Positions 3,015 through 25,187 of a DNA stretch of 34,460 nucleotides are shown in pieces; within the stretch, counting starts at the first letter, position 1; the number at the start of each line of letters is the position of its first letter. The notes under the pieces are model-generated. The model was not told the DNA's origin and did not search any database. It saw nothing but the letters and a program-made list of their open reading frames with translations. The stretch comes from a virus (lineage: Duplodnaviria > Caudoviricetes): positions 1-34,460 of the IMG/VR virus record IMGVR_UViG_3300020045_011725, one strand, 5' to 3'. The position numbers and the translations under genes are program-made.

Positions 3015-4423
3015 AATTTTATTTTTTCTTTTTGAGTCCAATTACCATCAACGGGACATAATTCTGCATCAACTTCCAAAGGAACATTAATCCATTTCCA
3101 ATTTTCTGATAAATCATAACAAGTAACTTGTTTAGTTATCTTCTTAATGTATTCTAATTCATCAGGATGCACATCTAACCAAATGCTATCATGTATTTGG
3201 TTAATCAAACGGGTTTTTAAATTTTCCCTAATGATTATATCATCTAAGGCTATAAAACACCATAATAAACAATGAAACGCTGCCCCTTGTACCGGGTAAT
3301 TGATTACGTCATTTTTACTCATAATCCCCCTACAACGGAATCCAGTTTTCATATCAATATACCCATTCTTTTTGTAGGTATTGTACCAATTTTCCTTCCA
3401 TTGGGCATATACTTTAAAACGATTGCCCCAAAAATCGTTTTCTACTTGTTTTATATGCTCTGTAAAAGCGTCAATTGATTTAATCCCTTTAGAAATCAAA
3501 TGGTCTGATAAATGAAAATCATTAAATTTTGGTTCCCATCCTACCATATCCAATCCCTGACCTGGTTTCCATTTTCCATTGGGTAATTTTCCCCATTCAC
3601 AGGCTAAACTGATAGCACAATTTTTATAGTAATCACCATAAAATTCAGGAAAAACAAAACCGTTTTTGGCCGCTTGTCTAAACGTGTAATGTACTGGTAT
3701 ACTTTTATCAAAGCAGTCTATTAAAAATATCTGCTTTGCCATATCCCCATGCATATCTGTAGTTGGGTCATATAGATATTTTAACATCACGGGGTCTTTA
3801 TGATAACAAGCCGCAATGCGAACTTCCATACCACTGAAGTCAATTTCCATAAGTTGGTGACCCGGTCTTGGGTATAGTGCTTTTCGACATATTTTGTTTG
3901 CTTCTTCATCCCTTTTAGGTATGTTTTGAAAATTAGGATGGTCAGAACTACTGCGGAAAGTTCGAACCAGATGAAGATTAAAAAAAGGATGAATATACCC
4001 ATTCACTTGTTCCCGATAAAAAGATTCCAAATAGGTATCTTTTATTTTTTTAATTTTTTTAATCTGAATCAAAATATCTAATTCTGGGATATTTAATTCA
4101 CGTAAAGCATCTTCATCTGTTGAAAATTTACCAGTTACCGTAGTTTTATCTGTTTTTAATTTTTTTATAGTAAACAAAAAATGAGATAATTGTACCGGGG
4201 AATAAATATTCACAGTACTTTTTGAAGCATGTTGCCAGTGGCGATAAAAAGAAGATGAATAAAATTGATTTTCTAATCTTTCAATTTTTTTAGTTAAATG
4301 TGCTTTTTTTGTTTCTAAATAATTAACATCCACACGGATGCCTTGCATTTCTGCTCGTGATAAAGCTAAAGCCCCATTATGAAACAATTCATAAGCATTT
4401 TTTGTTTTAGGATTTATTGTCAT
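3011..4423 (-). CDS. polA: Family A DNA polymerase, polymerase domain only
   Basis: FRSSSDHPNFQNIP, motif A DFSGMEVR, motif B RQAAKNGFVFPEFYG, NYPVQG, motif C QIHDS; no exonuclease domain in this ORF. Confidence 0.93.
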   Translation of the reverse strand: MTINPKTKNAYELFHNGALALSRAEMQGIRVDVNYLETKKAHLTKKIERLENQFYSSSFYRHWQHASKSTVNIYSPVQLSHFLFTIKKLKTDKTTVTGKFSTDEDALRELNIPELDILIQIKKIKKIKDTYLESFYREQVNGYIHPFFNLHLVRTFRSSSDHPNFQNIPKRDEEANKICRKALYPRPGHQLMEIDFSGMEVRIAACYHKDPVMLKYLYDPTTDMHGDMAKQIFLIDCFDKSIPVHYTFRQAAKNGFVFPEFYGDYYKNCAISLACEWGKLPNGKWKPGQGLDMVGWEPKFNDFHLSDHLISKGIKSIDAFTEHIKQVENDFWGNRFKVYAQWKENWYNTYKKNGYIDMKTGFRCRGIMSKNDVINYPVQGAAFHCLLWCFIALDDIIIRENLKTRLINQIHDSIWLDVHPDELEYIKKITKQVTCYDLSENWKWINVPLEVDAELCPVDGNWTQKEKIKL

Positions 4424-4425
4424 AC

Positions 4426-4698
4426 TTATTTGTTTAAAACTTGGATTTTTCTTTCTTTAGCTTTCACAGTAAGTAACATTTTGAAAACAATTTGATTTCT
4501 CCCGTCTATTTCAAGGCATTTATCCCCAATAAGTGAATCGGCATCTTGGTAAGCTACGACATAACCAGAATCAAAAGCATTTTTAATGGCTATTTTTTGT
4601 TTTTCTTTTTGATTGTTTATAAATCCAGTTACAACCAAAGTTATAACCAAACAAATCAATAAAAAAATAATTAAATAATTATTTACCCAATGTCTCAT
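4426..4698 (-). CDS. Small protein with N-terminal membrane anchor
   Basis: Hydrophobic LIIFLLICLVITLVVTGFI; tightly packed between the exonuclease and polymerase genes. Confidence 0.65.
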   Translation of the reverse strand: MRHWVNNYLIIFLLICLVITLVVTGFINNQKEKQKIAIKNAFDSGYVVAYQDADSLIGDKCLEIDGRNQIVFKMLLTVKAKERKIQVLNK

Positions 4699-4709
4699 AA
4701 TTTCAAAAT

Positions 4710-5918
4710 TTAAAAGTTTAGTAATTTCATTTGTTTTATTGCTAATCTGTATTCAAATACAGAATCTAAAGCGCAATATCTAAGTAGTTTTTCTTTACCC
4801 CCCTGTGATTTTTGAACTAATTCCAATACTTTGTTAATCGAATTAGCATTTTTATTGTCTGCAGATAAATATGGAGAAATCTCACTGGCATAATCAACAA
4901 CCCCAAAATTAACATATGTTTGAAATTTAAGTCCAGTAATACCTTGGCGATTATCTAATATATGAGCGGCTTGCATCGTGTCAAAAGCCCAATTATTTAC
5001 TTCAATGCCTAATTTTGTTTTAGTCCAATTATACTCATATTTCATATTATGGGCTATTTTTCCAATATTATGATTTTCTAATAAATCAGTAAACGGTTTT
5101 AATTTTCTTTTAGAATCAGGTAACATAAAAGTATATACTTTATTGGGTTCATAACAAACCGAAGCACAAACAATTTTATGTTTTTCATCTTGAGGTTTCA
5201 AGCCAGTAGTTTCATAATCAAAAGCGACTAAATCACTTTTAATAGTACGTAAAACCTGTAAATCTTCTATTATTTCAATAATAGGTTCTTTATTCGTTTT
5301 AAATTCTGGTAAATTAAAAACCTGTTCCAAATCATCCTCAAAAATAATAACATCCAATCCATTTTCAGAACTTTCGATTTGTTTAGGGTGGAATACTGGA
5401 CAAATCCAAGTTTTTAAATCTTGGTCGGGTATGGTAAAACCACGCCATTTTTGAATATTACCAAAATCATTTTTCCAACGATTCCCAATTAAACTAAATA
5501 AAGCTAATTCACCAAAAACTAATACCAATTTAGGTTTATATTGATTTATTATTTGAAGTGTTCTTTTTCGACAGTTCGAAACCTCATCCATACTTGGTTC
5601 CCGGTCTTCATTATTTTTATCAATACAACGGCAATGACAAGCATTTATATGTAAGCAATCTTCATATAAATCAATACCAAACTTATTAAATGATTTTTTT
5701 AAAATTCGTCCCGTATTACCAGACCATAATTTATTTTGAAAATCATCATTTTCCGTGGGGGCTAAACCAATAGTGAGTATTTGTTTTTTAAATAGCCCCC
5801 ACGGTTCCATTCTTGGATTTTTGGAATTTTTATATAAACCACAAGAGATACAGGAACGCACTTTGCCGTCTGGGTTAGAAGTGGATTGTGTTTGTTTATA
5901 TGTAAAAAAACCTTGCAT
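4710..5918 (-). CDS. Family-4 uracil-DNA-glycosylase-like domain fused to DnaQ-like 3'-5' exonuclease (N-terminal half of a split PolA)
   Basis: CISC..C..C Fe-S-type cysteines, GLAP (canonical GEAP), VFHP motif B; ExoI FDYETTG, ExoII HNMKYE, ExoIII YCALDS. Confidence 0.85.
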   Translation of the reverse strand: MQGFFTYKQTQSTSNPDGKVRSCISCGLYKNSKNPRMEPWGLFKKQILTIGLAPTENDDFQNKLWSGNTGRILKKSFNKFGIDLYEDCLHINACHCRCIDKNNEDREPSMDEVSNCRKRTLQIINQYKPKLVLVFGELALFSLIGNRWKNDFGNIQKWRGFTIPDQDLKTWICPVFHPKQIESSENGLDVIIFEDDLEQVFNLPEFKTNKEPIIEIIEDLQVLRTIKSDLVAFDYETTGLKPQDEKHKIVCASVCYEPNKVYTFMLPDSKRKLKPFTDLLENHNIGKIAHNMKYEYNWTKTKLGIEVNNWAFDTMQAAHILDNRQGITGLKFQTYVNFGVVDYASEISPYLSADNKNANSINKVLELVQKSQGGKEKLLRYCALDSVFEYRLAIKQMKLLNF

Positions 5919-6921: not shown

Positions 6922-7692
6922 TTATAAATAACTGTAAACTTTTCTTTTTCTAATGGGGTTTAATTTATCTTTGAAGCGTTCTAATCCTGAATTACCAACA
7001 GAACCCCCATCATTAACTAATTTACCACTATTAATGATATCATTCGAAGTATAAAATAACCATCTGGAAAATTCGTCCACAAATGGCTCTTTTTTATCGA
7101 CAATACATAATCTGTAGTTTATATACTTCCAATTGGTATCCCAAACATTTACGGCCTTCAAATGTTCGTTTTCATCATATAAAGCCCGTTTACATAATCC
7201 AGGAAAATCATTTAGTAAAATATTGGTTATTATTTCAGCATCTTCGGCATCATTTTTGTGTTCAAACCAGTTGGATAATAAAACAGAACATTGTTTTATA
7301 TCAATCCAATCACAATATACCCAATTAGCATGATTTTTAGAAAATTTTCTAATATTTTTCCTGAAAACTTCCCATTGACCCCCTTTTAATTCTAAGAAAT
7401 GGGAAGGGTTATAGACATACTCCCAATCTAAAAAAGAAATAGTAGAATAAGATGGGTATATCTTACAAAAATCAGACCAAATTGGTTTGTTTGATTTTTC
7501 TTGTCTATTATCGCAAACATAAATTGGGGGGAATAATAACCAACCATCGGCATCAACATAAGCCCAGTCATTTTCAAAATAACATTGAGCCCCAGAAGCT
7601 AATAAATAAGATTCACTGCAATAAAAATTTGGTTCAATCTTCTTTTTCTTCAGAAATTCCAAATAAATTGATGGAGGTATTATTTTTTTCAT
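6922..7692 (-). CDS. DUF2156/MprF-C-terminal-like GNAT-fold (aminoacyl/acyl) transferase
   Basis: EYVYNPSHFLELKGGQWEVFRKNIRKF and VNDGGSVGNSGLERFKDKLNP match the two conserved blocks I recall for this family. Confidence 0.65.
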   Translation of the reverse strand: MKKIIPPSIYLEFLKKKKIEPNFYCSESYLLASGAQCYFENDWAYVDADGWLLFPPIYVCDNRQEKSNKPIWSDFCKIYPSYSTISFLDWEYVYNPSHFLELKGGQWEVFRKNIRKFSKNHANWVYCDWIDIKQCSVLLSNWFEHKNDAEDAEIITNILLNDFPGLCKRALYDENEHLKAVNVWDTNWKYINYRLCIVDKKEPFVDEFSRWLFYTSNDIINSGKLVNDGGSVGNSGLERFKDKLNPIRKRKVYSYL

Positions 7693-7795
7693 TTATTTTA
7701 GGTTTTCCACAACAGTTTTTTTCATAACTACCATTTTTTAAAGATTGGATGAGTTTTTGAGAAACACCCCCTGTTTTTCTTGATTTTCCTCCCAT
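7634..7795 (-). CDS. Unannotated 53-aa peptide MGGKSRKTGGVSQKLIQSLKNGSYEKNCCGKPKINEKNNTSINLFGISEEKED
   Basis: ATG 2 nt after the stop of the upstream gene; fills the only gap in the cluster; below ORF-track cutoff; overlaps the start of the next gene by 59 nt. Confidence 0.5.
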   Translation of the reverse strand: MGGKSRKTGGVSQKLIQSLKNGSYEKNCCGKPKINEKNNTSINLFGISEEKED

Positions 7796-7797
7796 AA

Positions 7798-8556
7798 TTA
7801 TTTTCTCCTTGTTATTGGTTTACTTTCCCGGGCTTCTTTTATTTGTATGATTTCATCATATAAACAACACGCAATAATGCCTGTGAAATTACGCTTGTTC
7901 ATATCTGCGCTTTTTACCAATATGAAATCTTCTTTTCCTTTTTTCGGAAATGAAAATTTAAGGTTGTCTTGAAAATTGAATAAGGCTTTAAAATCATCTG
8001 TTTTTATAGCGATAGGCCCAAAATCGTTCGCTAATTTTTCAGAAAACATTCCCGTTTCGTTTTTTTCAATTTCAACAACACCCCCTGAGTATATGTTTCT
8101 TTGAATCATTTTTAAAGTACCCCCGGCACTTCCAATAAACTCAATATGACTTAAATCATTATCTATTAATTCCAAAATATCACGAGGCAAAAGAACAGTG
8201 GGACGTTCCTCCAAATCTTCCATATAGGATTGGTATAATTCTTTAACCTCTGCCGGTGACAATTCGGTAGTGCCACATATTTTTTTCCTTTGAAAATCCC
8301 CTTTTTTAGAATAAAAAACAATTTTATTATCTTTTATATCAAATTCATTACTGTCGTAATCGTTTGCTTTAAAAGATATGGGTGTTTCGAAGCGTCCTTC
8401 TGATTGTCGCAATCTAAAAGACAATAACACCGTATGGTCATAATTCATAATAAATATTTCACTATCTTGGGCATAAATAGTATTTTTTAAACCACCATTT
8501 TGGTCTAATGCCACGGCTTGAGCGAAAATAGCCTCAACTAAATTGTTTATTTTCAT
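7798..8556 (-). CDS. Putative second sliding clamp (PCNA/gp45-like two-domain fold)
   Basis: 252 aa; IFIMNYDHTVLLSFRL resembles the PCNA AMDxSHVxLVxLxL strand pair; C-terminal FTGIIA strand; fold is inferred only. Confidence 0.45.
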   Translation of the reverse strand: MKINNLVEAIFAQAVALDQNGGLKNTIYAQDSEIFIMNYDHTVLLSFRLRQSEGRFETPISFKANDYDSNEFDIKDNKIVFYSKKGDFQRKKICGTTELSPAEVKELYQSYMEDLEERPTVLLPRDILELIDNDLSHIEFIGSAGGTLKMIQRNIYSGGVVEIEKNETGMFSEKLANDFGPIAIKTDDFKALFNFQDNLKFSFPKKGKEDFILVKSADMNKRNFTGIIACCLYDEIIQIKEARESKPITRRK

Positions 8557-9953
8557 ATTATTTCTTTTATTAAATTTTCACGATAATCTGTATTCTCTTT
8601 AATCCAAATCAAGCCATCTGAATCCATCCCACAAGGGATTAATCCAGCACACCAACGTTGGCTATATGCCATATTCCCCCCCAAATTCCAAAGCATTTTT
8701 ACTTCTTTTTTTAAATCTTCAGTAAGAAAACCCCCATTTTTATTTACATAATTTTCAAAATCTGACCAAGAAACAGCGACCCCTTTTTTTAATATGTATC
8801 TTGCGGCCATAACCGTACATCCATAATTCCAACCACCTTCAAAATAATCCTCAACTTCACAACAAATAGATTGGTCATTATTAATTTGATTACCCATATC
8901 AAAAGTACTACAACTAAATCCGTAGTCCCTAAATAATTCCATGAATTTACCCAATAAAAGAGAGCCTAATGGCTGACTATCACACCCCACTGTAAAAATA
9001 CGGTCATAATCTAAGCCAATATTCATAAAACATTGACGTAATCCAGAATTATTTGCTGTATACGAATAAGTATCAAAAGTTATATTCCTAACACCAGCCC
9101 CCCACATATCTTCCATGTATTTTGTTAAATATTCCGGTTCATCATTGGTTAAAAATAAATAGGGTTCTATTCTTGCCACTACACGAACTCCAGCCGCACA
9201 TAAATTTTTAATACCTTCTAAGCGTTGTTCATATGATGGCGCTCCAGGCTCTAATGCTTTTAATAAAGTATTATTTGCCGAAATAACAGTAACATGTACT
9301 GCGGCTTTCGCTTTATTTTCTGACAATGCTTTCACATAGGGGTCAGTCCCAACTACATTTGATTTAGTGTTCAACATTACTGGGTAAGCTATTTCTTTCA
9401 GATATTCTAACATAGATAGGCTGACCCCGGCTTTTTGTTCATTTCTTAAAAAATCTTCAAAACGAATACCCATTCGAACCGGAATTTCTAAAGCAAAGGC
9501 TTTATTAATATGCGTCAATTTTTGTTTTTCAGGCATGGTCATGCCTCTAAAACGTTCCATTTTATCTAATTCTTTTTTGTAGTATTCCGGGTTGCAATGT
9601 CGTAGCCCCATTGTTTTACTATTGTCAAAAAAAGCAGTATATAAAGAAGCCCGGAAAGCATTCGCAAAACAATAAATACAATTATAAGGACAAACCAAAC
9701 CATCCCAAATATCCATATTAAAAGGTAAGGGACAAGCAGCGGCACGAACGGATATTTCCAGAAAATTATTAATTTCTTCAGTGTTGAGCAACCGCTCTTG
9801 TTTTCGCCATTCCCCTATTTTTAAATTGAATTGGCTATAATTTTTTTTTCGTCCTTTCTCTTGTACAATTTCGGCCTTTCTATTTGAAGAATACAACTGA
9901 GTCATCCGGGGGACAACTCTGGCAATAATTTTTCTTAACTCCCAATAATTCAT
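8553..9953 (-). CDS. Radical SAM enzyme (SplB/COG1533-like)
   Basis: CPYNCIYC CxxxCxxC motif, NTKS, LEPGAPSYEQRL, RIEP, C-terminal CC. Confidence 0.88.
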   Translation of the reverse strand: MNYWELRKIIARVVPRMTQLYSSNRKAEIVQEKGRKKNYSQFNLKIGEWRKQERLLNTEEINNFLEISVRAAACPLPFNMDIWDGLVCPYNCIYCFANAFRASLYTAFFDNSKTMGLRHCNPEYYKKELDKMERFRGMTMPEKQKLTHINKAFALEIPVRMGIRFEDFLRNEQKAGVSLSMLEYLKEIAYPVMLNTKSNVVGTDPYVKALSENKAKAAVHVTVISANNTLLKALEPGAPSYEQRLEGIKNLCAAGVRVVARIEPYLFLTNDEPEYLTKYMEDMWGAGVRNITFDTYSYTANNSGLRQCFMNIGLDYDRIFTVGCDSQPLGSLLLGKFMELFRDYGFSCSTFDMGNQINNDQSICCEVEDYFEGGWNYGCTVMAARYILKKGVAVSWSDFENYVNKNGGFLTEDLKKEVKMLWNLGGNMAYSQRWCAGLIPCGMDSDGLIWIKENTDYRENLIKEII

Positions 9954-9987
9954 AATGTAGTTTTATAATATTATACAATTTTTGTAT

Positions 9988-10800
9988 TTAATGACCGATA
10001 TTCCAAAATAAAATTGGTGCTTTTAATGATTTTTCATTTTCTATCAGCCATTGCCAGGCTTTAGCGTCATAATAAGGGTGACATGGAAATGGTGGAGTTA
10101 TTTGACTTTTTTGAGTATATTCCCATCCAGGGTCTACTAACTTAAAATTATTAGTTTTAAATATTCCCGAATTTATTGATTGGGCTTTATTTAAAATTTG
10201 ATTTGCTTTTTTATTAACATCTCCTGTTCGGGTCATTATCCCATATAAATCCCAAGATGAAGGCCATTCGTTTAATATACTCATTATACCAGAACATATA
10301 GTACCACTACCAACGCAAACTATTATGGATTTAATATTAAAATCCAAATAATTTAAAGTGCCCCAAAATTCATGGGCTGTTTCCTGTATTGTTTCTTTAA
10401 AAGGTAATCCTAATGGCAATAATACAGAATTTGGTATTTTTTTTAAAATGGATTTACTAATATACCAATTCACCTTAGCCATACCAGCTTTAATTGGTAT
10501 GATTTCAGCCCCTAATTTATACCATTGTTTCCTATGATATTCCAATACTTCTGGAGTTTTAATATATTGAGGGTCAAAAATAATAGCTTTCATCCCTAAT
10601 TCTTTACACGCCCAGGTAACCCCCCACCCAGCCATTGATATACTGGTTTCTGTGTACCCAACAGTGGTTATTCCTTGTTTTTTTAATTTTTCTAAATGTG
10701 GGATGATGCCCCGGCACTTGGAAAACGGAGGGGCAGGGGATTCAAAACATAAGTCCTCCCGTTTAACATAAATATTTCCATACAATTCCACAGGGGTCAT
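9988..10800 (-). CDS. PLP-dependent fold-type II enzyme, phage type
   Basis: IYVKREDL...SKCR (Schiff-base Lys), phosphate loop VGSGTICSG, PYYDAKAW, terminal LFWNIG. Confidence 0.85.
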   Translation of the reverse strand: MTPVELYGNIYVKREDLCFESPAPPFSKCRGIIPHLEKLKKQGITTVGYTETSISMAGWGVTWACKELGMKAIIFDPQYIKTPEVLEYHRKQWYKLGAEIIPIKAGMAKVNWYISKSILKKIPNSVLLPLGLPFKETIQETAHEFWGTLNYLDFNIKSIIVCVGSGTICSGIMSILNEWPSSWDLYGIMTRTGDVNKKANQILNKAQSINSGIFKTNNFKLVDPGWEYTQKSQITPPFPCHPYYDAKAWQWLIENEKSLKAPILFWNIGH

Positions 10801-11849
10801 AGTCCGGCATCTTTTAAATTAAACATTTTTTTATTAGTCCCATTAATTAAGGCTAAACCGTCATTAAAATCACCAGTACCATCATTTGTTTCTTTTATCG
10901 TTTTTTCAATGGAATATCCTTTTTGACGACATAATTTAAAATGATGCGAGTTAAAAGTACAAGGATTTGGAACATTAACGCCACAACAAGTATTCGCTTT
11001 TTCAACCCAATCTTTACCAGTATTAACAAAGTCTGGACAACCAAGTATTATATTATATTTTTTGGAAATTTCTAACAAATTAGGTAGTATTTTTTTCCAT
11101 TCTTTATCTTGATTGTAAAACCAAATTTTTTCAATATCCACACCAATCGAATGTAATCTTTTAGCCACGTACGCATTGAAATGGAAATTATATGTATTGT
11201 ATCTATTAATTTTATGGGCTTTTAAGAGTTTTAAAGTATCTTCAAAATCTTTTTCGGTATGAAACCCTGGAATAAACGGTTCCCCATTAACGCCTCCTGG
11301 TATGCCTAAACTTTGTAAATATGATAAATGTTTAATTCTATCTAAAGGGGGGGTTGTTCTTTTTCTTTCAAATATTTCCCAATCTTTTTCTAATCCAGGG
11401 GAAACAACAGGCATAATGGTAATTAAATTTTTTTTATATGCTCTTATTATTTTCTTTTCGTATTCCATCATTATCCCTGTAAACCGGGTCTGTATTACGA
11501 AAGTCCAATCTAATTTTGTTAATATATTGAATATTTCTTTGCTAATTTTATGTTCTTTTTCGGCTTCTTGAAAGGGGTCTGTCTTATTACCCCATCGTAT
11601 TGTTTTTTTATGCGCTAAAGCGCTTGAAAGTGTAGTTTTTGGAAATTTATTTTGTAAAGACGTTATTAGTTTTTTTTCTAATAAGAATAAATCAGCGGGT
11701 TTTAATTCTTTTCCCCAAACATGATTCAAATTTCGTAAATAACAATGGTGGCAATCAGTAAGACAATTACCATAACTGTCTAAAGATAACGAAAGGGGGC
11801 AATATAAACTGTCCCCCCTTATCGTTATACTGTTTTTTAATAGTTCCAT
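10797..11849 (-). CDS. Radical SAM enzyme (SplB/COG1533-like), paralog of 8553-9953
   Basis: CLTDCHHC CxxxCxxC motif, GNKTDPFQ, EPFIPG, C-terminal TCCG. Confidence 0.88.
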   Translation of the reverse strand: MELLKNSITIRGDSLYCPLSLSLDSYGNCLTDCHHCYLRNLNHVWGKELKPADLFLLEKKLITSLQNKFPKTTLSSALAHKKTIRWGNKTDPFQEAEKEHKISKEIFNILTKLDWTFVIQTRFTGIMMEYEKKIIRAYKKNLITIMPVVSPGLEKDWEIFERKRTTPPLDRIKHLSYLQSLGIPGGVNGEPFIPGFHTEKDFEDTLKLLKAHKINRYNTYNFHFNAYVAKRLHSIGVDIEKIWFYNQDKEWKKILPNLLEISKKYNIILGCPDFVNTGKDWVEKANTCCGVNVPNPCTFNSHHFKLCRQKGYSIEKTIKETNDGTGDFNDGLALINGTNKKMFNLKDAGL

Positions 11850-12708: not shown

Positions 12709-14247
12709 TCATAAATAACTCCCAATAATGGGTCTCCCTCGTTTTAAATTCTGTAAAACAACAATCTCATCGGCGCTGCTAAACTCGTCCTCCCTCAATA
12801 TTAACTTATTGATACGCATCAAACCAATCTTTTTTTCCCGGTCTTTCGGGTCTTGGTTTAATCCATACATTGCCGTAACATGTCCGTACTTACGCTTATC
12901 CTCACTAAAATTACTAAGTTTCAAGCGGTGTTGATCATACGATTTAGAATCAGCTTGGGTTGCTGTTATTAGTATACAATTTTTCTCTTGGTTCAGTCCT
13001 CTCAAATCTTTCCATATTTGATTTTGTTGATGTCTAAATTCAACCCGGGCATCACAAACTAATAAATCAGCGTAATCAATAATAATAAAATCAGGCGCAA
13101 ATCCATCTTCTTTTTCCCAAATACCCAAAATAGCTTTTATTTGCTTAACAGACAAACTACCATTGGCGTGGGTGGATAGTCTAAATTTTCGTTTATGTTT
13201 AATGAAGAACTCCGAATATACATCTTTGGCCTCTTCTTTTTTTAATGGACTAATTGCCGGGGTTTCTTTAATCCAAGGAACGCCCCAATGAGCGTCTTCG
13301 TATTCCTCACAATTATAACAGGGTTTATAATCTGGATTTTCTTTTAAAGCATCTACAAGAGCGTCTTTCGTAACCTCCTCCCGAATCATTTCTTCAGTCA
13401 TATTATCAAATACACCAAAATCACATTCTCTTTCTTTTTTCCGGCATGTATTTCGTTGGTTATGTATACAATCCCGCAATGGCTCGTGGGAAGCTACGCA
13501 ATATTTTTCTTTGTTTGATTTTCCCGTTAAATTTATAGCAATACGCATTAGTTGCTGCCCTTCACTCATATCCCCGGCTTGGAAAAAGGCAACTTTGTAT
13601 TTTTTACAAGCCCGTAAAGCTATTTCAATCATTAAAAATGTTTTACCTCTTTTTTCTGAAGCCATAAAAGCAATAAAAGCCCCTCGAACAAACTGGTCAT
13701 TCCAAAATTTACCTAATTGCTTTGGCCATTTTAAAAGTGGGTCTGCCTGAGCCTCAAAAGCCTTTTCAATTTTTTCCAAAACAGCATTACTGCTTAAATC
13801 GATATCAGTATCAGAAGCGTCTGGGATGGGCTTAAAATCACAAGCATTTTTTTCGGCTTCTTCAATCTGACTACTGGCAATCAAGGCTTGTAATGTATCA
13901 CAATATAGGATCAACCTACGTTCTCTGAAATGCTTTTTTGATTGGGCAATAGCGTAATCTAAATTGAAGGACTCTTGTTCATACTCTTCTGACAATCCGG
14001 GCAATATTTCTTCTTCAATCTCGTTTGTTATTTCTTTAGAAATCTTCGATGAAGCAACCTTTTCATAAAAAATACTTTCAATATTACGTCCCGGGGCTTT
14101 ATCGAATTTTTCGAAATATTCCCAAACCCAACTTGCCAGTCGTTTTGCTGTAGGGGATTCTAAGTAGGAAACATCCCAAATATTTCTGATTTGACGTAAA
14201 AAATCAGTGGATGTGATTAAATAGATTATTATTTTACGTTCAATCAT
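12709..14247 (-). CDS. dnaB: Replicative helicase, DnaB/gp41-like (SF4), with Cys-rich insertion
   Basis: Walker A-like ASEKRGKT, IIIDYADLL, TATQA, FSEDKRK; insertion DCIHNQRNTC..EC..PCYNC. Confidence 0.85.
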   Translation of the reverse strand: MIERKIIIYLITSTDFLRQIRNIWDVSYLESPTAKRLASWVWEYFEKFDKAPGRNIESIFYEKVASSKISKEITNEIEEEILPGLSEEYEQESFNLDYAIAQSKKHFRERRLILYCDTLQALIASSQIEEAEKNACDFKPIPDASDTDIDLSSNAVLEKIEKAFEAQADPLLKWPKQLGKFWNDQFVRGAFIAFMASEKRGKTFLMIEIALRACKKYKVAFFQAGDMSEGQQLMRIAINLTGKSNKEKYCVASHEPLRDCIHNQRNTCRKKERECDFGVFDNMTEEMIREEVTKDALVDALKENPDYKPCYNCEEYEDAHWGVPWIKETPAISPLKKEEAKDVYSEFFIKHKRKFRLSTHANGSLSVKQIKAILGIWEKEDGFAPDFIIIDYADLLVCDARVEFRHQQNQIWKDLRGLNQEKNCILITATQADSKSYDQHRLKLSNFSEDKRKYGHVTAMYGLNQDPKDREKKIGLMRINKLILREDEFSSADEIVVLQNLKRGRPIIGSYL

Positions 14248-15050
14248 ATTGGTAATTGTATTTTTTGCAAACTAACTGTACTTACATGGGTATAGATTTC
14301 TGTTGTTTTACTTGAATAATGTCCTAATATTTTTTGAATATACCGTAAATCAACTCCAGCTTCTAACATAGCCGTTGCCGATGAATGTCGGAGTAAATGA
14401 AAATGATATTCTTTCCCTAAATATTGTTTAACTATTTGATTACAACTTGTTGCGGAGTATTTTAAATCAAATTGTCCGTTAAATAAATAAACAGAAGGTC
14501 TACAAGATTTAAAATATAAACGTAATAAATCAAGTATTTTTATGGAAAGTGGGACTATCCTATCTTTTTTACCTTTTGCTTGTCTAATATTTATTATCAT
14601 TCTTTTTGAATCTATATCTTCAATTTTTAAGTTAATAATTTCACTTACCCGTAACCCAACTGAATACGCTAATGAAATAATAGCTTTATGTTTTATATTT
14701 GGAATTTTATCAATCTTATCCAATAAAAATTCTTTATCTATAACTTGTGGTAAATGTTTTTCTTTACGGGGTCTTTGAAAATCAATTTTATCATATTTCT
14801 TTTTTAATACTTTTTCATATTCAAATTTCAAAGCATTAATTATTTGGTTTTGTTGAGAAATAGATGAAAATTTGTATGTAGTTAAGTATTCTGAAAAATC
14901 ATTTGATGTAAGATGTTGGTAATATTTGTTTCTATTTTCTATAAACTTCTCAAAATAATGAGAATACATTTGAATAGTTCTTTCCGAATAATTAAAATAT
15001 TTTAAAGATTGTGTATAAATCTTTAAAAATTCGTCTATATTTTTATTCAT
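14244..15050 (-). CDS. Tyrosine recombinase (integron-integrase-like/XerD-like) lacking the IntI-specific insertion
   Basis: N-terminal SAM-like YSERTIQMY; catalytic GLRVSE, KGKKDR, HLLRHS, LGH, TTEIYTHV; stop overlaps the helicase ATG; ATG at 15050 (TTG at 15056 possible). Confidence 0.92.
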   Translation of the reverse strand: MNKNIDEFLKIYTQSLKYFNYSERTIQMYSHYFEKFIENRNKYYQHLTSNDFSEYLTTYKFSSISQQNQIINALKFEYEKVLKKKYDKIDFQRPRKEKHLPQVIDKEFLLDKIDKIPNIKHKAIISLAYSVGLRVSEIINLKIEDIDSKRMIINIRQAKGKKDRIVPLSIKILDLLRLYFKSCRPSVYLFNGQFDLKYSATSCNQIVKQYLGKEYHFHLLRHSSATAMLEAGVDLRYIQKILGHYSSKTTEIYTHVSTVSLQKIQLPI

Positions 15051-15056
15051 ACTCAA

Positions 15057-15093
15057 ATAGTTATGCGTTAAAATTTATATATTATAGTTATGT
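15057..15093 (+). other. attI-like primary recombination site (core G/TTATGT at 15087)
   Basis: First GTT of the array, no upstream hairpin, directly 5' of the recombinase; 9-bp direct repeat ATAGTTATG at 15057-15065 and 15084-15092. Confidence 0.6.
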
Positions 15094-15108
15094 TTAATTT
15101 TTAAAATT

Positions 15109-15405
15109 TTATGAATTTGTTTTATACTTCGCAATCCATTCATCATAAGTCAGTGTATTAAATTGTAAATATCTCTTTGCAATTTCAGAATTATATTGTC
15201 TGTTTTCTTCCATTAAATTACCATCTCTAAACATTTCACCAGTTCTAATTGCTTTCCAATCTAATCCACCATTCCATTCAACAATTAACATTTGTGACAT
15301 CACATCTTTTAAATGCTCTTGTGTTGTTGTTTCACTTTGCATATTTATAAAACCATCAGTTACTTGTTTCATATATGCTTCGTATTCCTTTTGATATTCT
15401 CTCAT
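15109..15405 (-). CDS. Cassette 1 hypothetical protein (98 aa)
   Basis: ORF fills cassette 15087-15484. Confidence 0.75.
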   Translation of the reverse strand: MREYQKEYEAYMKQVTDGFINMQSETTTQEHLKDVMSQMLIVEWNGGLDWKAIRTGEMFRDGNLMEENRQYNSEIAKRYLQFNTLTYDEWIAKYKTNS

Positions 15406-15436
15406 ATTTTCATTTGTATAAAATTTTTAAAACTAA

Positions 15437-15490
15437 ACATAACAACAAATATATTGCATTAAAACGACAATATATTTGCAACCGTTATAG
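15437..15490 (+). repeat. attC-like site 1 (short, 54 bp)
   Basis: ACATAAC-aa-CAAATATATTG...CAATATATTTG-caacc-GTTATAG. Confidence 0.8.
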
Positions 15491-16126
15491 TGCATTGTAA
15501 AAAGACTGCCACTCCGATTGAGATTTGAATTTTGAAAAGTATTCATTTCCTTCAAATATCAATTTAAAATCAGTCCATTTTAATTTCTCATTTACAGTTG
15601 GGGTATATTTTTCAACTCCAAACGTTTTCGCTCCTATTCGTTTTGCAAAGTCAACAGTAAAGTAAAAAGCCTTTAAATTATTTTCTGCCAACACTTTAAA
15701 CCCATGCTCTAAAATATCAATTACTTCTTGTTTGCTTTTCTCTTTGCCGATAATCATTGATAATCTTCCACTATGTATAAAGTTATGGCAATAATGGCAA
15801 AGTGGCTCAATACTTTTTACTTCGCAAATTCCCGTATTATAATCAATATTCCAAAACTCATGTGCCTCTAACCATTTATGTTTTTTAGCCTCTGATTTAG
15901 CAACTCCACAAGCTACGCAATGGTAATCTGTGCTTTTATATGTTTTTTGCCTTGTTTCATCCCACCAATTTTGACCCTTAATTTCTCGTGGTGCAACACC
16001 ATGTAAGGGTTTTGGAATGTGGGGGTGGCAAAGAATTTCAGGTTTCAAAACCAACGCACTATAACACTCGCTATAAGTAATGGCGGAGTTCGTGCTGTTA
16101 TTATCGTTTGTGCTTTCTATTGTCAT
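15485..16126 (-). CDS. Cassette 2 HNH-like Zn-binding nuclease-domain protein
   Basis: CVACG...LEAHEFW...LCHYCHNFIH; stop codon is the TAA of the core site; likely ATG lies inside the attC loop. Confidence 0.7.
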   Translation of the reverse strand: MTIESTNDNNSTNSAITYSECYSALVLKPEILCHPHIPKPLHGVAPREIKGQNWWDETRQKTYKSTDYHCVACGVAKSEAKKHKWLEAHEFWNIDYNTGICEVKSIEPLCHYCHNFIHSGRLSMIIGKEKSKQEVIDILEHGFKVLAENNLKAFYFTVDFAKRIGAKTFGVEKYTPTVNEKLKWTDFKLIFEGNEYFSKFKSQSEWQSFYNAL

Positions 16127-16188
16127 TTGTTGTATTTTGATAGTGAGTAGTTCTAAATCCGCCACTACTCATAGCGGAACCGTTAGCG
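16059..16188 (+). repeat. attC-like site 2 (130 bp)
   Basis: CTATAAC-act-CGCTATAAGTAATGGCGGA...TCCGCCACTACTCATAGCG-gaacc-GTTAGCG. Confidence 0.88.
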
Positions 16189-16425
16189 TTCATGATAAAA
16201 GACTGTACCAACAATCTTATCCGAATTATTGAAACATTGGTTAATAAATTGAGCATGAAGCAACGCTTCGTATTTGTTTTTAGTTGTTAATATCTCTGAA
16301 CCGTCAACAACTAAATAAGGTATTCTGGCAATTTTGTATTTGCCACCTAATTGCTCACCGATAATATTCCAAGCTGTTTTTGATTGGCTGTGAACTACTT
16401 TTGTTTTGATTTTTGGATTTTCCAT
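16183..16425 (-). CDS. Cassette 3 hypothetical protein (80 aa)
   Basis: ATG at 16425 (MENPKIKTK); stop is the TAA of the core site. Confidence 0.75.
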   Translation of the reverse strand: MENPKIKTKVVHSQSKTAWNIIGEQLGGKYKIARIPYLVVDGSEILTTKNKYEALLHAQFINQCFNNSDKIVGTVFYHER

Positions 16426-16468
16426 TATGTTCTTTTTTAAAATTAATACTCTGAAATAAAGCACGAAA

Positions 16469-16598
16469 CGCTAACACAGCGTATAAAACAAAAGGGTTGC
16501 AGTAGTATGCGTTGTGTAGTGATTTCTATTGGCGTTCATCTCGTGGGATAAAGACACACTCTTTAATCCCTTTCGATTTCATACGCTCATCGTTATGC
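16469..16598 (+). repeat. attC-like site 3 (130 bp)
   Basis: CGCTAAC-ac-AGCGTATAAAACAAAAGGG...CCCTTTCGATTTCATACGCT-catc-GTTATGC. Confidence 0.85.
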
Positions 16599-17111
16599 CC
16601 CATATTGGATAATGACCGTCTCCGAAGCATTGTATTTGTTTTTATAATATTTATCTCCCTTGTAAAGACTAATAAATGGGCAATCAATATTCAATTCCTT
16701 CCATTTTTCAACCGCAAACTCAACAAGTTGCTCAAAAGTATCAAACCTTTCAGTTAATCCCGTATCTGGATTTTCTTTGATAAAATCAGCGTGTTCAATA
16801 TCATTTGCCCACCTAAAGGCTCTTTGATTTGAATTATGTCCATCTTTTTCATCCAATTGTTTTGCTAACTCCAATGTTAAAGGCCTTTTAAGTTCAATAT
16901 TTTTACCCAAGTATTTTACGTTATGGTCGTCAACATTATCAATGGTTACATTCTCTTTTTCTGACAAAATTAGAGTGCCGTATAAATGAGTTGCATCGGC
17001 ACATTGCCCAGCCCACGAATCAATATTCAGAATAGCTAAATAAATACGGGGCATAACACTCGCTATAAGTAATGGCGGGTTAGTCTGTTGTTTATCTTTT
17101 GTGCTTTTCAT
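16593..17111 (-). CDS. Cassette 4 hypothetical protein
   Basis: Stop is the TAA of the core site; start at 17111 (attC loop) or 17054 (within the inverse core). Confidence 0.72.
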   Translation of the reverse strand: MKSTKDKQQTNPPLLIASVMPRIYLAILNIDSWAGQCADATHLYGTLILSEKENVTIDNVDDHNVKYLGKNIELKRPLTLELAKQLDEKDGHNSNQRAFRWANDIEHADFIKENPDTGLTERFDTFEQLVEFAVEKWKELNIDCPFISLYKGDKYYKNKYNASETVIIQYGA

Positions 17112-17178
17112 ATAGTTTATTGTATTTCGATAGTGAGTAGTTCTAAATCCGCCACTACTCATAGCGGAAACGTTATAA
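17051..17178 (+). repeat. attC-like site 4 (128 bp), near-identical arms to site 2
   Basis: Shares ataacactcgctataagtaatggcgg and gatagtgagtagttctaaatccgccactactcatagcggaa with site 2. Confidence 0.9.
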
Positions 17179-17184
17179 CCAACC

Positions 17185-17958
17185 TTAAAAGAGCGTCGGT
17201 GCTTTTTGATAGTTGGTTACTAAAATTTCAGTTCTTTTGTTCTTTAAGTTTGTTCTTTCTCCAATGTAGATAACATTTAGTCTCCTTTCTTTTGCTTGGT
17301 TTAAAATAAATTCGTTATCAAATTCACTCATTGCAAACATGCACTTGCTATTTTGGAGCGTATCAAATAAATCAATACTATCCTGTTCAGTAAATGAGTG
17401 GCTGTAATTGTCATTTGTTGCTATGTATGGAGGGTCTGCATAAATAAGCGTTTTTGCTTCATCATTTCGCCCATCAGTTTGAAAAGAAATATCCTTTATA
17501 AACTTTCTAAAGTCGGTATTCCCAAACTGCACGCCAAATAAATATTTTGCCGTTGCATCAAGTAAGTATTCAAAGTTTTCAGGATATTCATTTTTAGTTG
17601 CTGTAAACCTCATTTGCTGCCCAGTTCCTAAGTATGTAAAATTGCTTAAAAATATAAACCTCAAAGCCTTTTTTATAGTGTCTGTTTCTTCATTTTGTTT
17701 CCAGTAGTCAAGTAATCCTGCATGTAGAGGCATTAGTTTAAATGCTTCTTTTAACTCATTTCGGTTATTAGTAGCAACATTAAACAAGTTAAAAACATCG
17801 TTATCAATATCATTTACAATATTGTAATTTGCTTTTGGTTTGTTAAAAAACATCCCACCTGCCCCAAAAAACGGCTCAATATAAATTCTATGCTGTGGAA
17901 AATGCTTTTGTATTTCCTTTGCAATTTTCTGTTTATTTCCTAATCTCCTTAAAATCAT
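17185..17958 (-). CDS. Cassette 5 DNA adenine methyltransferase (Dam/D12 class)
   Basis: RLGNKQK, motif I YIEPFFGAG, VNDID, motif IV YADPPY, terminal TEILVTNY; ATG at 17958. Confidence 0.92.
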   Translation of the reverse strand: MILRRLGNKQKIAKEIQKHFPQHRIYIEPFFGAGGMFFNKPKANYNIVNDIDNDVFNLFNVATNNRNELKEAFKLMPLHAGLLDYWKQNEETDTIKKALRFIFLSNFTYLGTGQQMRFTATKNEYPENFEYLLDATAKYLFGVQFGNTDFRKFIKDISFQTDGRNDEAKTLIYADPPYIATNDNYSHSFTEQDSIDLFDTLQNSKCMFAMSEFDNEFILNQAKERRLNVIYIGERTNLKNKRTEILVTNYQKAPTLF

Positions 17959-17971
17959 AACAAAAGGCTGG

Positions 17972-18101
17972 TTATAACACGCGGTAAAAAACATGCCGGG
18001 TGTAGTGGTTTATTAAAATATATAGCTCTGTTCATAATTCTCTGTATCTTGATAGTGTTTCGCTCGCAATCCGGCACGATTTCTTACCGCAGCCGTTAGT
18101 G
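17972..18101 (+). repeat. attC-like site 5 (130 bp)
   Basis: TTATAAC-ac-GCGGTAAAAAACATGCCGG...CCGGCACGATTTCTTACCGC-agcc-GTTAGTG. Confidence 0.85.
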
Positions 18102-18105
18102 CCAA

Positions 18106-18534
18106 TTATGAAAGACACTTCTGCGTAGCTTTTTCGGGATTTGAAGCAAAATAAGGTTGCCCCCATTCTCTGGATTTAGAATCAATACATTGAAATCTAT
18201 TCCAAGCACGTTCTAATGGTCTAATTCCGTAATCACCAAGTAATCTACCAACCCATGAAGGATGAACAGTTTCATCATCAATTGATTGTTGAATCCATTT
18301 ATGGTCAATGTATTCTTTGCAAATAATTAATAAGCTAACTTTTGCGTTTCTTAATGTGGTTTTATCGTGTTGCAAATAACCACTACCATTTGAAAAGTCA
18401 CAAGAATCGGGGTGTTTAGGTAATGTATTCATAATTGAATTTACTCTATCAATAAGTAATTCATACTTAATACATTCTTGCTTGTCGGTAAATTCTACTC
18501 CGTCAATTGCTTTAAATTTTGTAATTGTTTCCAT
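18106..18534 (-). CDS. Cassette 6 hypothetical protein (142 aa)
   Basis: ORF fills cassette 18095-18698; N-terminal FKAIDGVEFTDKQECIKYE. Confidence 0.78.
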   Translation of the reverse strand: METITKFKAIDGVEFTDKQECIKYELLIDRVNSIMNTLPKHPDSCDFSNGSGYLQHDKTTLRNAKVSLLIICKEYIDHKWIQQSIDDETVHPSWVGRLLGDYGIRPLERAWNRFQCIDSKSREWGQPYFASNPEKATQKCLS

Positions 18535-18574
18535 TATTATAATTTTAAAAGTTGATAATCAAATAAATAACTGG

Positions 18575-18704
18575 CACTAACACCGTATATAAAAAATAGC
18601 GGTTTTAGTGGGCTTATTTAGGCTACTGCTACTAATTAATATTCTACTATTTTGATAAGATATTGCTTCTAAATCGGCTACTGCTCATACACGAACCGTT
18701 AGCA
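18575..18704 (+). repeat. attC-like site 6 (130 bp)
   Basis: CACTAAC-ac-CGTATATAAAAAATAGCGG...TCGGCTACTGCTCATACACG-aacc-GTTAGCA. Confidence 0.82.
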
Positions 18705-19019
18705 TTAATTTGCCACTACACTATTCATCCACCATTTATAAGCTCGCATTTTTAAATAGCATGTGTCGTTTCCAGTAACATATTTGCCACCCTTATCTTC
18801 AAGTTTAAAATAGTATTTTTTATCCACAAGTACATACTTGCCATTATTCATTTTTGCAATCTTCCAGTCAGTTTTTGACATATCAAAATCACAAAACTCT
18901 TTTACTTCTTTATTAGTGTAGTGGTTATTGTCAGAGTGGCATCCCACGCACAAAACTAATGCTAACAAAGTATAAATAAAATACCTTGCTTTTTCGGTTA
19001 ATTTAAAACTGTTTTTCAT
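18705..19019 (-). CDS. Cassette 7 predicted lipoprotein (104 aa)
   Basis: Basic N-terminus, hydrophobic core and lipobox-like LCVG/C; signal peptide is encoded by the attC-7 loop and left arm. Confidence 0.68.
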   Translation of the reverse strand: MKNSFKLTEKARYFIYTLLALVLCVGCHSDNNHYTNKEVKEFCDFDMSKTDWKIAKMNNGKYVLVDKKYYFKLEDKGGKYVTGNDTCYLKMRAYKWWMNSVVAN

Positions 19020-19088
19020 ATCAATTTATTTTTATAATTAAAAATTCGTGTTTCAAATCCGGTACTTTACTTATACCAACCGTTATAA
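18960..19088 (+). repeat. attC-like site 7 (129 bp)
   Basis: TGCTAAC-aaa-GTATAAATAAAATACC...GGTACTTTACTTATAC-caacc-GTTATAA. Confidence 0.85.
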
Positions 19089-19094
19089 AACAGT

Positions 19095-19496
19095 TTAAGA
19101 CAGCGTTTCAAAGTAGAATCTGCCTGAAAATGCTTTATCAGTTGTTATATCGAAAAGCCTTGCAATTTCTAACATATACGCTTTTCTTTTAATTGATTTC
19201 TCAATTTTAGGGTTCTTTGGTAGTTTTGAAATTCTAATATGAAAATCTTTCATAAAATTTCTAAACTGTTCTAAATCCATCGAGTGTTTATAGTGGTTTA
19301 CAATTCTTTGAGAAGGTAGCATATTTTGTAAATTATGATTCTCTTCAAACATTGCAGAATTATTTACCCACCAGTTTCTTCTTACTGCCTTTACGTGATC
19401 AACTTGCCAATCGGGTAGTAATTCTGTCCCCGTATAGGCACATTTGCCACCAAGCAAGGTTCTAACTATTTCCCTATTTTTCTTTGACATATACAT
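19095..19496 (-). CDS. Cassette 8 HNH endonuclease-like protein
   Basis: GGKCAYTG...WQVDHVK...NMLPSQRIVNHYKH; start 19496/19490, or 19592 inside attC-8. Confidence 0.78.
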   Translation of the reverse strand: MYMSKKNREIVRTLLGGKCAYTGTELLPDWQVDHVKAVRRNWWVNNSAMFEENHNLQNMLPSQRIVNHYKHSMDLEQFRNFMKDFHIRISKLPKNPKIEKSIKRKAYMLEIARLFDITTDKAFSGRFYFETLS

Positions 19497-19509
19497 AATA
19501 AAAACCGTT

Positions 19510-19638
19510 TTATAACACATAATATAAAATAGCTGGGTGTTATCGGACTTTTTAGCCCGCTTGCTACCTGTTAGTTTTATGGCGTTGGACATGTTAGTAG
19601 CTCCAAATCCCAGCCATTTCATATTATCAACGTTATAT
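19510..19638 (+). repeat. attC-like site 8 (129 bp)
   Basis: TTATAAC-ac-ATAATATAAAATAGCTGGG...CCCAGCCATTTCATATTAT-caac-GTTATAT. Confidence 0.87.
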
Positions 19639-19681
19639 GCCACTTTAAGAAGCAACAGCACATTGTTTAATATTCCAATGA

Positions 19682-20593
19682 TTATAATTTTAATAAATCC
19701 CCTTTTTTATTTCTATATTTTCCATCCCCAGATAAATACCATGTTTCTCCATTTTCAATTACGCTATCTGGTTTATTATTATACAATTTTTCGCGAGAAT
19801 ACAACTTCATTTCCGCATGGTCATCTAACCAACGACATTGGTTGATCCAAGTTGTTGGATTTGGTATATATTCTTTTATGGACCATTGTTCAGATTTAAT
19901 TTGGGAATTAATTGCTTTTTCTATTATTTCAAAAGTTGGTCGTATTTTATCCTTGGATTTTTGGGAACATAATTCCATCCAAGATATTAGCGCACTACCC
20001 TTTCCAGCTTTTTTTGGGTATATGTTCCAAAAGTTTTCAAATTGATTTATAGATAATTTTTTGGGTTGTATTTCTTTTGAAAAAAGTCCATCATCGATAG
20101 AGTTAGTATTTTTTTCTTTAGTATTATTTTCTTTTAGTCTTATTAGTAGTTGGTTTCCCGTAGGCGGGTTTCCCGTAGGCGGGTTTCCCGTAGGCGGGTT
20201 TCCAGTATATGGCTCAATAGGCTCTAATTTATGGGATTTTAATATTGATAAGTGTTTTTCTATGTTAAAATTGAATGGAAAATCTGTATATGCCCAAAAA
20301 GAACCTTTAAACTTTTTCGTCAATCTATCCCTGTATCTTACTCTTTTTAAATAGCCAAATGTTTCCAATTCTTTTATTCCGGCGCGAATAGCAAAATTTT
20401 GTTCCGGCATCATTGTTTTGATTGTTTCAATATAACTTTTCCACCCTTTTTGGTTAGACAACAAAATTCCCAAAATGACTTTGGCTTTGGCTGTGATATT
20501 TGGGTTTTTTAAAAATTCATTAGGGATTTGAGTGAAATTAGAATCAAGGCTGCAATTGATAGCGTCCGGGAGGTTTAAATTAGTACGTTCCAT
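19682..20593 (-). CDS. Phage replication initiator / replisome organizer (wHTH N-terminus)
   Basis: NFTQIPNEFL..AKAKVILGILLS N-domain, (GNPPT)3 linker, FENFWNIYPKK and YIPNPTTWINQCRW C-domain; ATG at 20593. Confidence 0.8.
   Translation of the reverse strand: MERTNLNLPDAINCSLDSNFTQIPNEFLKNPNITAKAKVILGILLSNQKGWKSYIETIKTMMPEQNFAIRAGIKELETFGYLKRVRYRDRLTKKFKGSFWAYTDFPFNFNIEKHLSILKSHKLEPIEPYTGNPPTGNPPTGNPPTGNQLLIRLKENNTKEKNTNSIDDGLFSKEIQPKKLSINQFENFWNIYPKKAGKGSALISWMELCSQKSKDKIRPTFEIIEKAINSQIKSEQWSIKEYIPNPTTWINQCRWLDDHAEMKLYSREKLYNNKPDSVIENGETWYLSGDGKYRNKKGDLLKL
20152..20203. repeat. Tandem 15-bp repeats GGTTTCCCGTAGGCG x3.5 (putative origin iterons)
   Basis: Perfect GC-rich copies at 20152, 20167, 20182 plus partial at 20197, next to an AT-rich tract inside the initiator gene. 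Confidence 0.75.
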
Positions 20594-20605
20594 AATTTTT
20601 AAAAT

Positions 20606-20684
20606 TAAAAAACCTGATTGATTTCGGGGTGGCGTCCCTACTCTCAATCAGGTCTGTTTAAAAATATATCGTTAAGCTCGCCAC
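20606..20684 (-). promoter_or_regulatory. Structured 5' leader of the initiator (hairpin, U-tract, loop-complementary upstream hexamer)
   Basis: 10-bp perfect stem 20612-20621/20644-20653; loop CGCCAC complementary to GTGGCG at 20679-20684 on the minus strand. Confidence 0.55.
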
Positions 20685-24683: not shown

Positions 24684-25187
24684 TTATTTTTTTCTTTTTA
24701 GGGCTTCTTCAATAGTTTCATAAAGCAAAGAACAACAATCAAATTCCCCGCATTCTGGGCATATCCTATTAGAGTAACACTCATTATCCTCACTTACGTC
24801 TGTTTTTAAATTATTAGACATTATGTTTTTACCACAATTATCACATTTGATTTTAGTATTTCTGTATGAAAAAGCGTAACGAGGGATTGGCCAATGCGTT
24901 ATGGTTCTGTAATTTTGGGAAACTGTGATATTTAAGTTTTCTATTTTTTCTTCAATGCATTTTTCTAAAAGCACCGCATCTATTATTTCTCCTTGAAAAT
25001 TATGACAAATCCCATCAGTAACATCACAAGAATTAATTAAACAGTTAATGCCATCCATAAAAAAATCAGGCAATTTGTTTGTTTGAAAAGTTATTGTTTT
25101 ATGGGTTGGGATGCGGGTTTCTGTTTGCCCCCAATTTTCATTTTCTTTAATAGTAGAAAGGTCAATTTTAATAAAAAAAGTTTTCAT
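24684..25187 (-). CDS. Hypothetical protein with C-terminal Zn ribbon
   Basis: CDNCG...CPECG. Confidence 0.7.
   Translation of the reverse strand: MKTFFIKIDLSTIKENENWGQTETRIPTHKTITFQTNKLPDFFMDGINCLINSCDVTDGICHNFQGEIIDAVLLEKCIEEKIENLNITVSQNYRTITHWPIPRYAFSYRNTKIKCDNCGKNIMSNNLKTDVSEDNECYSNRICPECGEFDCCSLLYETIEEALKRKK

Follow-up and report, generated by a model that had tools for sequence, protein, structure and literature searches.

The DNA analyzed here, referred to as the window, is a 34,460-nucleotide viral stretch (IMG/VR record IMGVR_UViG_3300020045_011725) with a tailed-phage gene set that includes terminase, portal, primase, polymerase, and DnaB; from its relatives, the host is inferred to belong to the Bacteroidota. 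Placed between the genes for the replication initiator and DnaB are a tyrosine recombinase gene that ends in a stop codon overlapping the start codon of DnaB, an attI-like site, and eight units that resemble integron cassettes (Table 1). The units span 384–923 bp from G/TT to G/TT, and each has one main open reading frame (ORF) on the − strand. Their eight + strand sites, of the form TAACA...CGTTA, comprise one of 48 nt and seven of 122–124 nt. Sites were called by a sequence pattern and arm pairing; seven pass the arm-pairing filter in 15000–19700, and 500 shuffled versions gave none in 493 cases and one in seven.

Coordinates and domain matches bear out the tyrosine recombinase, attI-like site, and eight single-ORF units of 384–923 bp described in an initial annotation of this DNA. 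The seven palindromes of 128–130 bp reported there become 122–124 nt once three flanking bases per side are excluded. The RYYYAAC/GTTRRRY boundaries it named as defining integron architecture are matched in full by none of the eight sites; the AAC/GTT core alone holds.

Unit ends, docking site, and unit exchange

In all eight units, the 6–7 nt that follow GTT have their exact reverse complement before the next AAC, and pairings between ends that do not belong to the same unit reach at most 4 nt each. By established integron logic, pairing of a unit's own ends is the trace of a cassette closed into a circle. Relatives were collected by a scan of viral contigs, which returned at least 220 related stretches (80 kept), and by a scan of genomes, which returned at least 537 (80 loci analyzed). 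Among relatives, end pairing of at least 6 nt is reached by 170 of 284 adjacent pairs (60%, redundant loci included), compared with 1.5% in shuffled controls.

The first GTT of the array (G15087) has no hairpin. Across viral homologues, the left half of this docking site is conserved and the right half is variable; for this reason, the + strand is taken as the top strand and G/TT as the crossover. A permissive attI-like pattern matches in 70 of 83 loci, at 36–37 nt from the recombinase start in 29 and at 45–47 nt in 23. On comparative evidence, then, the integrase is accompanied by an attI with a GTT crossover at which new cassettes arrive. An interpretation that takes the gene strand as the top strand, with a site after each gene as in classical cassettes, was rejected: it conflicts with the docking site, of which one half is conserved, and with the hairpin that travels with unit 5, and the classical layout was found in none of 115 cargo-homologue loci.

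Units differ between close relatives at these positions. The first units differ in two pairs of viral loci whose recombinases are 100% (L026/L028) or 99.5% (L039/L040) identical, one 956-bp unit is first in L042 and L043 and seventh in L050, and a single unit is present at positions 1 and 7 of L005. Contigs from eight of the 24 listed public runs match single window units or sites, and public contigs diverge within a few bases of CG/TT (15484, 15488, 16596, 17170–17177, and 19635). One of them joins the left half of an attI-like site to window unit 5, which is also seen with other neighbors.

The Polaribacter phages Freya and Leef encode enzymes 34–36% identical to that of the window, with a docking site in the equivalent position and family sites. 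Comparison of end stretches from seven of the ten Freya isolates showed that isolates 1, 2, 5, and 9 equal isolate 10 minus nested deletions from the docking GTT, with identical backbone stretches. Isolate 6 matches isolate 5 except for an additional 472-bp unit at the docking GTT, a unit not found in the isolate 10 stretches compared, and the first 902 bp are missing from the record of isolate 8, the tail of which lay outside the comparison. In Ingeline_1, the site finder returned an attI-like site and no convincing array, and a search for cultured phages with a close site gave one weak match. Cassette capture and shuffling, as first proposed for this locus, thus gains comparative support from conservation of the docking site, complementarity between the two ends of each unit, and the gain, loss, and rearrangement of units at G/TT; unit gain and loss at GTT boundaries was looked for in relatives and found, and a fixed gene order was not seen.

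Table 1. Positions of the recombinase, docking site, units, and flanking genes in the window
Feature	Position	Strand	Description
Recombinase gene, 268 aa from ATG	14244..15050	-	SAM_4 plus catalytic domain; R134 K159 H218 R221 H244 Y253 intact; IntI insertion missing
attI-like docking site, non-hairpin	15070..15097	+	Probable crossover G15087/T15088, 36 nt from recombinase start
Unit 1, 397 bp	15088..15484	+	ORF of 98 aa, 15109-15405 (-), no family; site 15440-15487, 48 nt
Unit 2, 698 bp	15485..16182	+	HNH-like nuclease ORF 15485-16126 (-), phrog_5200, start likely in hairpin loop; site 16062-16185
Unit 3, 410 bp	16183..16592	+	ORF of ~80 aa, 16183-16425 (-), phrog_38014 (unknown function); site 16472-16595
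Unit 4, 580 bp	16593..17172	+	ORF 16593-17111 (-), no family, start likely in hairpin loop; site 17054-17175
Unit 5, 923 bp	17173..18095	+	Dam-type (D12) adenine methyltransferase 17185-17958 (-); site 17975-18098
Unit 6, 603 bp	18096..18698	+	ORF of 142 aa, 18106-18534 (-), no family; site 18578-18701
Unit 7, 384 bp	18699..19082	+	ORF of 104 aa, 18705-19019 (-), hydrophobic N-terminus from hairpin arm; site 18963-19085
Unit 8, 550 bp	19083..19632	+	HNH-like ORF (phrog_2118), end 19095 (-), start uncertain (19490/19496 or 19592); site 19513-19635
Residual right end	19633..19681	+	Unit-start-like GTTA-N6-A without partner site; adjoins stop of initiator gene
Flank: DnaB-like helicase	12709..14247	-	
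Flank: replication initiation protein	19682..20647	-	

Relatives in viruses and genomes

In the 80 viral loci, 333 site calls lie upstream of the recombinase in the layout of the window, nine downstream, and three on the other strand (overlapping calls counted separately). At least one site is carried by 52 of the 55 loci with at least 1500 nt upstream, and at least two by 47. Second arrays were also seen: one contig (L001) has additional sites downstream of the recombinase, and another (L119) has sites near DnaB with no recombinase in view. In viral units the longest ORF is usually on the bottom strand (163 of 170), and in genome units on the top strand (34 of 38). Cargo genes of the window are antisense relative to classical cassettes, a feature that the initial annotation did not mention, and viral units do not show the integron arrangement in which the cassette ORF lies upstream of attC on the top strand and is read from Pc.

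Genome homologues, mostly from Bacteroidota, usually have a longer integrase (most full ORFs 344–388 aa), and family sites in their loci lie downstream on the integrase strand in 54 calls, upstream in two, and elsewhere in one. On a quick tree of 131 proteins, none of them a canonical IntI, a long branch (SH-aLRT 99) sets the viral enzymes apart, in a group of 64 viral or window rows and two genome rows with the viral layout. Loci of Flavobacterium saccharophilum (L167) and F. limicola (L188) have arrays of 120–128-nt sites in normal cassette orientation, co-directional with the longer integrase, a chromosomal layout that presumably resembles that of the Treponema denticola integron. On the Acinetobacter indicus plasmid p80-1-2-tetX3 (L220:5022–7160), the recombinase beside tet(X3) is a member of the family (49% identical); tet(X3) lies between an attI-like GTT and the left part of a TAACA site, and only four of seven end-pairing bases match. 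A paper on tet(X14) notes the xerD adjacency, finds no integron, and calls the role of xerD untested (PMC7473080).

The proposal that the system is a core part of the phage genome is contradicted by its distribution. The recombinase was found in two of 57 DnaB-relative loci, or two of the 43 in which the interval from primase or initiator to DnaB is covered, and in L089 the initiator directly adjoins DnaB. The array is accessory, not core. Four more contigs (L002, L008/L091, L029, and L098) have the recombinase at the initiator–DnaB junction, and its stop codon overlaps the next start in the window, L008, and L029; the five enzymes at this junction require four changes on the quick tree.

The units could be mobile and yet be moved by a host chromosomal homologue, the phage gene being a bystander or a lysogeny integrase with the attI-like sequence as its attachment site. 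The longer integrases accompanied by family sites in genomes would fit this explanation, as would phage P12002L, which has family sites and no annotated integrase. The authors who described Freya, Leef, and Ingeline likewise take integrases as signs of temperate life, in a paper whose main text never uses the words "integron" or "cassette" (PMC8776804). However, the viral enzymes are intact, stand on a well-supported branch of their own, keep a docking site at fixed distance, and are accompanied by arrays in nearly all loci with upstream coverage. We regard movement by a host enzyme as unlikely.

Recombinase and site anatomy compared with integrons

The recombinase matches Pfam Phage_integrase and Phage_int_SAM_4, and its six catalytic residues (Table 1), intact as expected of an integron integrase, are invariant in 52 aligned homologues. 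The insertion that marks IntI is missing: residues 175–215 align with residues 174–262 of Vibrio cholerae IntI4, 40 residues compared with 88, and the predicted model (pLDDT 87) has no extra helix in this region. The closest fold to the predicted model is IntI4 (2A3V, TM 0.70), and this fold, together with the SAM_4 domain, would point to kinship with IntI. Like the XerA, XerC, and XerD dimer resolvases, the enzyme is short and without the insertion, and its top sequence matches are XerA-like (4A8E and 5HXY). In contrast to them, it misses the curated cut-offs (XerA 174 < 220, XerC 137 < 335, and XerD 135 < 330 bits) and is tied to cassette arrays rather than to dif. The nearest described enzymes may include the "integron-like" subgroup of simple tyrosine recombinases, for which Smyshlyaev et al. 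(2021, PMC8138268) give the catalytic-domain insertion as "not fully conserved"; in the part of that paper available, cassette arrays are assigned to no insertion-less member.

Site anatomy was derived from 147 distinct sites. An R box is followed by an asymmetric unpaired spacer, a stem at positions 7–18, and a variable loop; the sites thus have the R''/R' boxes, unpaired central spacer, and variable terminal structure of attC. Of 132 longer sites, 124 show no register shift up to and including position 19, and 21 have one extra base beyond it. In viral loci, site lengths fall into classes of 48, about 88, and about 124 nt, the steps being confined to the loop. The extrahelical bases described for classical attC sites (PMC8946536) have no counterpart in a conserved bulged base; a conserved A/C opposition is found instead. 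T11 is conserved in 98% and A19 in 97% of sites, and the opposition at A19 is non-Watson–Crick in 135 of 147, of the T·G type (− strand) in 106. At unit position +10, A is invariant (156 of 156 cases), with a non-Watson–Crick opposition in 150 and the T·G type in 118. In the circular form, the TA-N6-A pattern with A/C opposition thereby recurs outside the R box (C in seven of eight window units). From this conservation we infer that two inverted, wobble-marked binding boxes may stand in for the extrahelical bases.

Several further observations concern the sites. The arms of sites 2 and 4 are near-identical, and in one public run (X12) a contig over this shared arm (16117–16185) has a depth of ~6000, suggesting very many site copies in the sample. 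Lone TAACA...CGTTA pairs lie beyond the array at 24775–24901 and 29983–30073 (127 and 91 nt), the first pairing weakly (−9.4). The possibility that the sites are an Rfam RNA, with Flavo-1 as the lead candidate, was rejected: no Rfam covariance model matched at E ≤ 1 in 14000–20000, and the single Flavo-1 match in seven related loci lies upstream of the integrase, away from the sites.

Compared with integrons (IntI1 and V. cholerae IntI4), the locus shares the divergent integrase–attI–array layout, the G/TT core, self-complementary ends, insertion at attI, the order of R box, unpaired spacer, stem, and variable loop, the SAM_4 N-terminal domain, and the best fold match. It differs in an enzyme ~47 residues shorter in the insertion region, in the lack of a conserved extrahelical base and of the GTTRRRY consensus, and in genes that are antisense, have the site at their 5' end, and often start within it. 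Clusters of attC sites lacking integron-integrases (CALINs) and integrons described in phages by Qi et al. (2023, PMC9892861) are alike in combining attC-like clusters with methyltransferase genes, but canonical IntI is the enzyme of their complete integrons, which come from Vibrio, Escherichia, and Shewanella phages. P12002L_attC1 from that study is a 49-nt member of the window's site family, with a loop nearly as in window site 1; of the six sites tested with IntI1, it alone was not recombined. The available text describes P12002L as without an integrase and does not include a cognate enzyme, docking site, or antisense layout (PMC9892861). In this Polaribacter phage (L219:29170–32500 and 38035–39245), methyltransferase genes in antisense orientation are bordered by family sites. 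The stretch published as P12002L_attC2 looks more like the end of a docking site than like a hairpin; it overlaps a family end in opposite orientation and is not a clean test.

The Xer-like features raise the alternative that the enzyme recombines double-stranded core sites in the manner of Xer or Cre, and that the palindromes act in RNA (in translation start or processing) or are by-products. Lack of the IntI insertion, XerA-like best matches, the missing conserved bulge, start codons within loops, and weak folding of some sites are all compatible with this mechanism. However, primary sequence between sites is barely kept, whereas the pairing of positions 7–18 and of unit ends is kept; the end pairing spans a whole gene outside the site and would be unneeded by an mRNA hairpin; and site length steps occur in the loop alone. 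Such a mechanism appears quite improbable.

Cargo, expression, and standing of the proposed integron-type platform

The window units carry one Dam-type methyltransferase, two HNH-like nucleases, and five proteins of unknown function, and scoring for defense systems singled out the methyltransferase alone. In unit 5, a 26-codon frame from the hairpin loop precedes the methyltransferase, and its stop overlaps the methyltransferase start. Of 91 long sites, 55 have a loop ATG from which the cargo frame runs uninterrupted through the arm, compared with four for each of the other two frames. The unit 2 protein has matches in 15 viral loci to its hairpin-encoded N-terminus alone, and most of the other 42 match the rest alone. 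The 73 methyltransferase homologues comprise eight in full units, eight with a 5' site only, 54 without a site, and three on stretches too short to judge; none of 42 HNH homologues is in a unit. The closest cargo homologue (94% amino acid identity) shares the ORF and ~8 nt upstream and nothing else. The pattern is compatible with units that may be built from, or release, ordinary phage genes.

Other features of the window include a 15-bp tandem repeat in three copies within the initiator gene (20152–20207), possibly origin iterons; radical SAM, PLP-dependent (threonine dehydratase-like), and acyltransferase-like genes near the polymerase (6922–11849), possibly a DNA-modification cluster; and a family A polymerase split over two ORFs (UDG-like/exonuclease and polymerase) with a 90-aa ORF in between (3011–5918).

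A number of results weigh against an integron-type platform. The enzyme scores 151 bits, in two stretches, against the integron integrase model TIGR02249 (cut-off 265), and the catalytic-domain insertion has been called essential for integron function (PMC8138268). Integrated sites 3, 5, 6, and 7 fold about like shuffled sequences (− strand z −1.4, −1.1, +0.6, and −0.9; the remaining four reach −2.3 to −3.8), unbiased folding favors the − strand in only six of eight window sites, and the preference for − strand folding in 135 of 147 sites is inflated because the site finder scored that strand. Most cargo homologues sit outside units. Promoters are not apparent in the sites, with sigma-70-like matches numbering 31 compared with 29.4 in shuffles and no enrichment of a Bacteroidetes −7 consensus; this would instead suggest read-through from the operon. 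Reordering in metagenomic contigs may partly be misassembly, since 48-nt sites are shared. The Freya enzyme is just 36% identical to that of the window, and Freya's host may supply a chromosomal homologue. Finally, the window phage was found in no public run (best share 0.07), and no RNA run was listed.

That the array consists of inert repeats, MITE-like insertions, or an assembly artifact, as the single contig, the lack of public reads seen for this phage, and a unit order open to misassembly at the near-identical arms of sites 2 and 4 might suggest, is very improbable and largely refuted by the reordering, the Freya isolates differing exactly at G/TT, the end pairing internal to units, and the strict polarity beside the recombinase.

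What the comparisons describe is a real mobile cassette system that is integron-like in its working and departs from integrons in three defining respects. The integron claim of the initial annotation accordingly stands as a likeness of platform, in the attI, the end pairing, and the changes at G/TT; it does not stand in the strict sense, given the missing insertion, the lack of a conserved extrahelical base, and the TIGR02249 score. Based on the sequence data, we consider it likely that the array is an integron-type platform run by the phage's own enzyme on folded sites. In this model, the short recombinase would excise units as circles and insert them at G15087/T. If the analogy with integrons holds, each site would fold on its − strand while single-stranded during phage replication, the enzyme would cut the folded − strand at AA/C, and replication would resolve the junction. 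Conservation suggests that TA-N6-A boxes ending in a T·G wobble may take the place of the flipped-out bases recognized by the insertion of IntI. Judging from the layout, recombinase and cargo, on the strand of the replication operon, would be read along with it, so that a separate cassette promoter would be unneeded, and the loop of long sites would often supply the cargo start codon.

A broader proposal, toward which we lean only slightly, is that these loci represent a second widespread class of integrons in Bacteroidota and their phages, with an insertion-less recombinase that reads wobbles. The phage branch would reverse its cassettes, using the hairpin as a portable translation start, build them from ordinary phage genes, and reshuffle them during growth, as in Freya; the chromosomal branch would include the "xerD" beside tet(X3). 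Detectors based on IntI and attC would miss both. Complete integrons are described as very rare in Bacteroidetes (PMC9024848) and in phages (PMC9892861), and no description of the whole system of enzyme, docking site, and antisense array was found in the literature searched, which excluded most subscription papers.

If true, the system would provide a direct test of the accepted model that rests hairpin recombination on the IntI insertion and extrahelical bases, and would open to phages a route of their own for acquiring methylases and nucleases. The occurrence of one gene in nearly identical forms, one free and one within a cassette, would bear on how cassettes arise. Freya and Leef are cultured, and the system would therefore be testable now.

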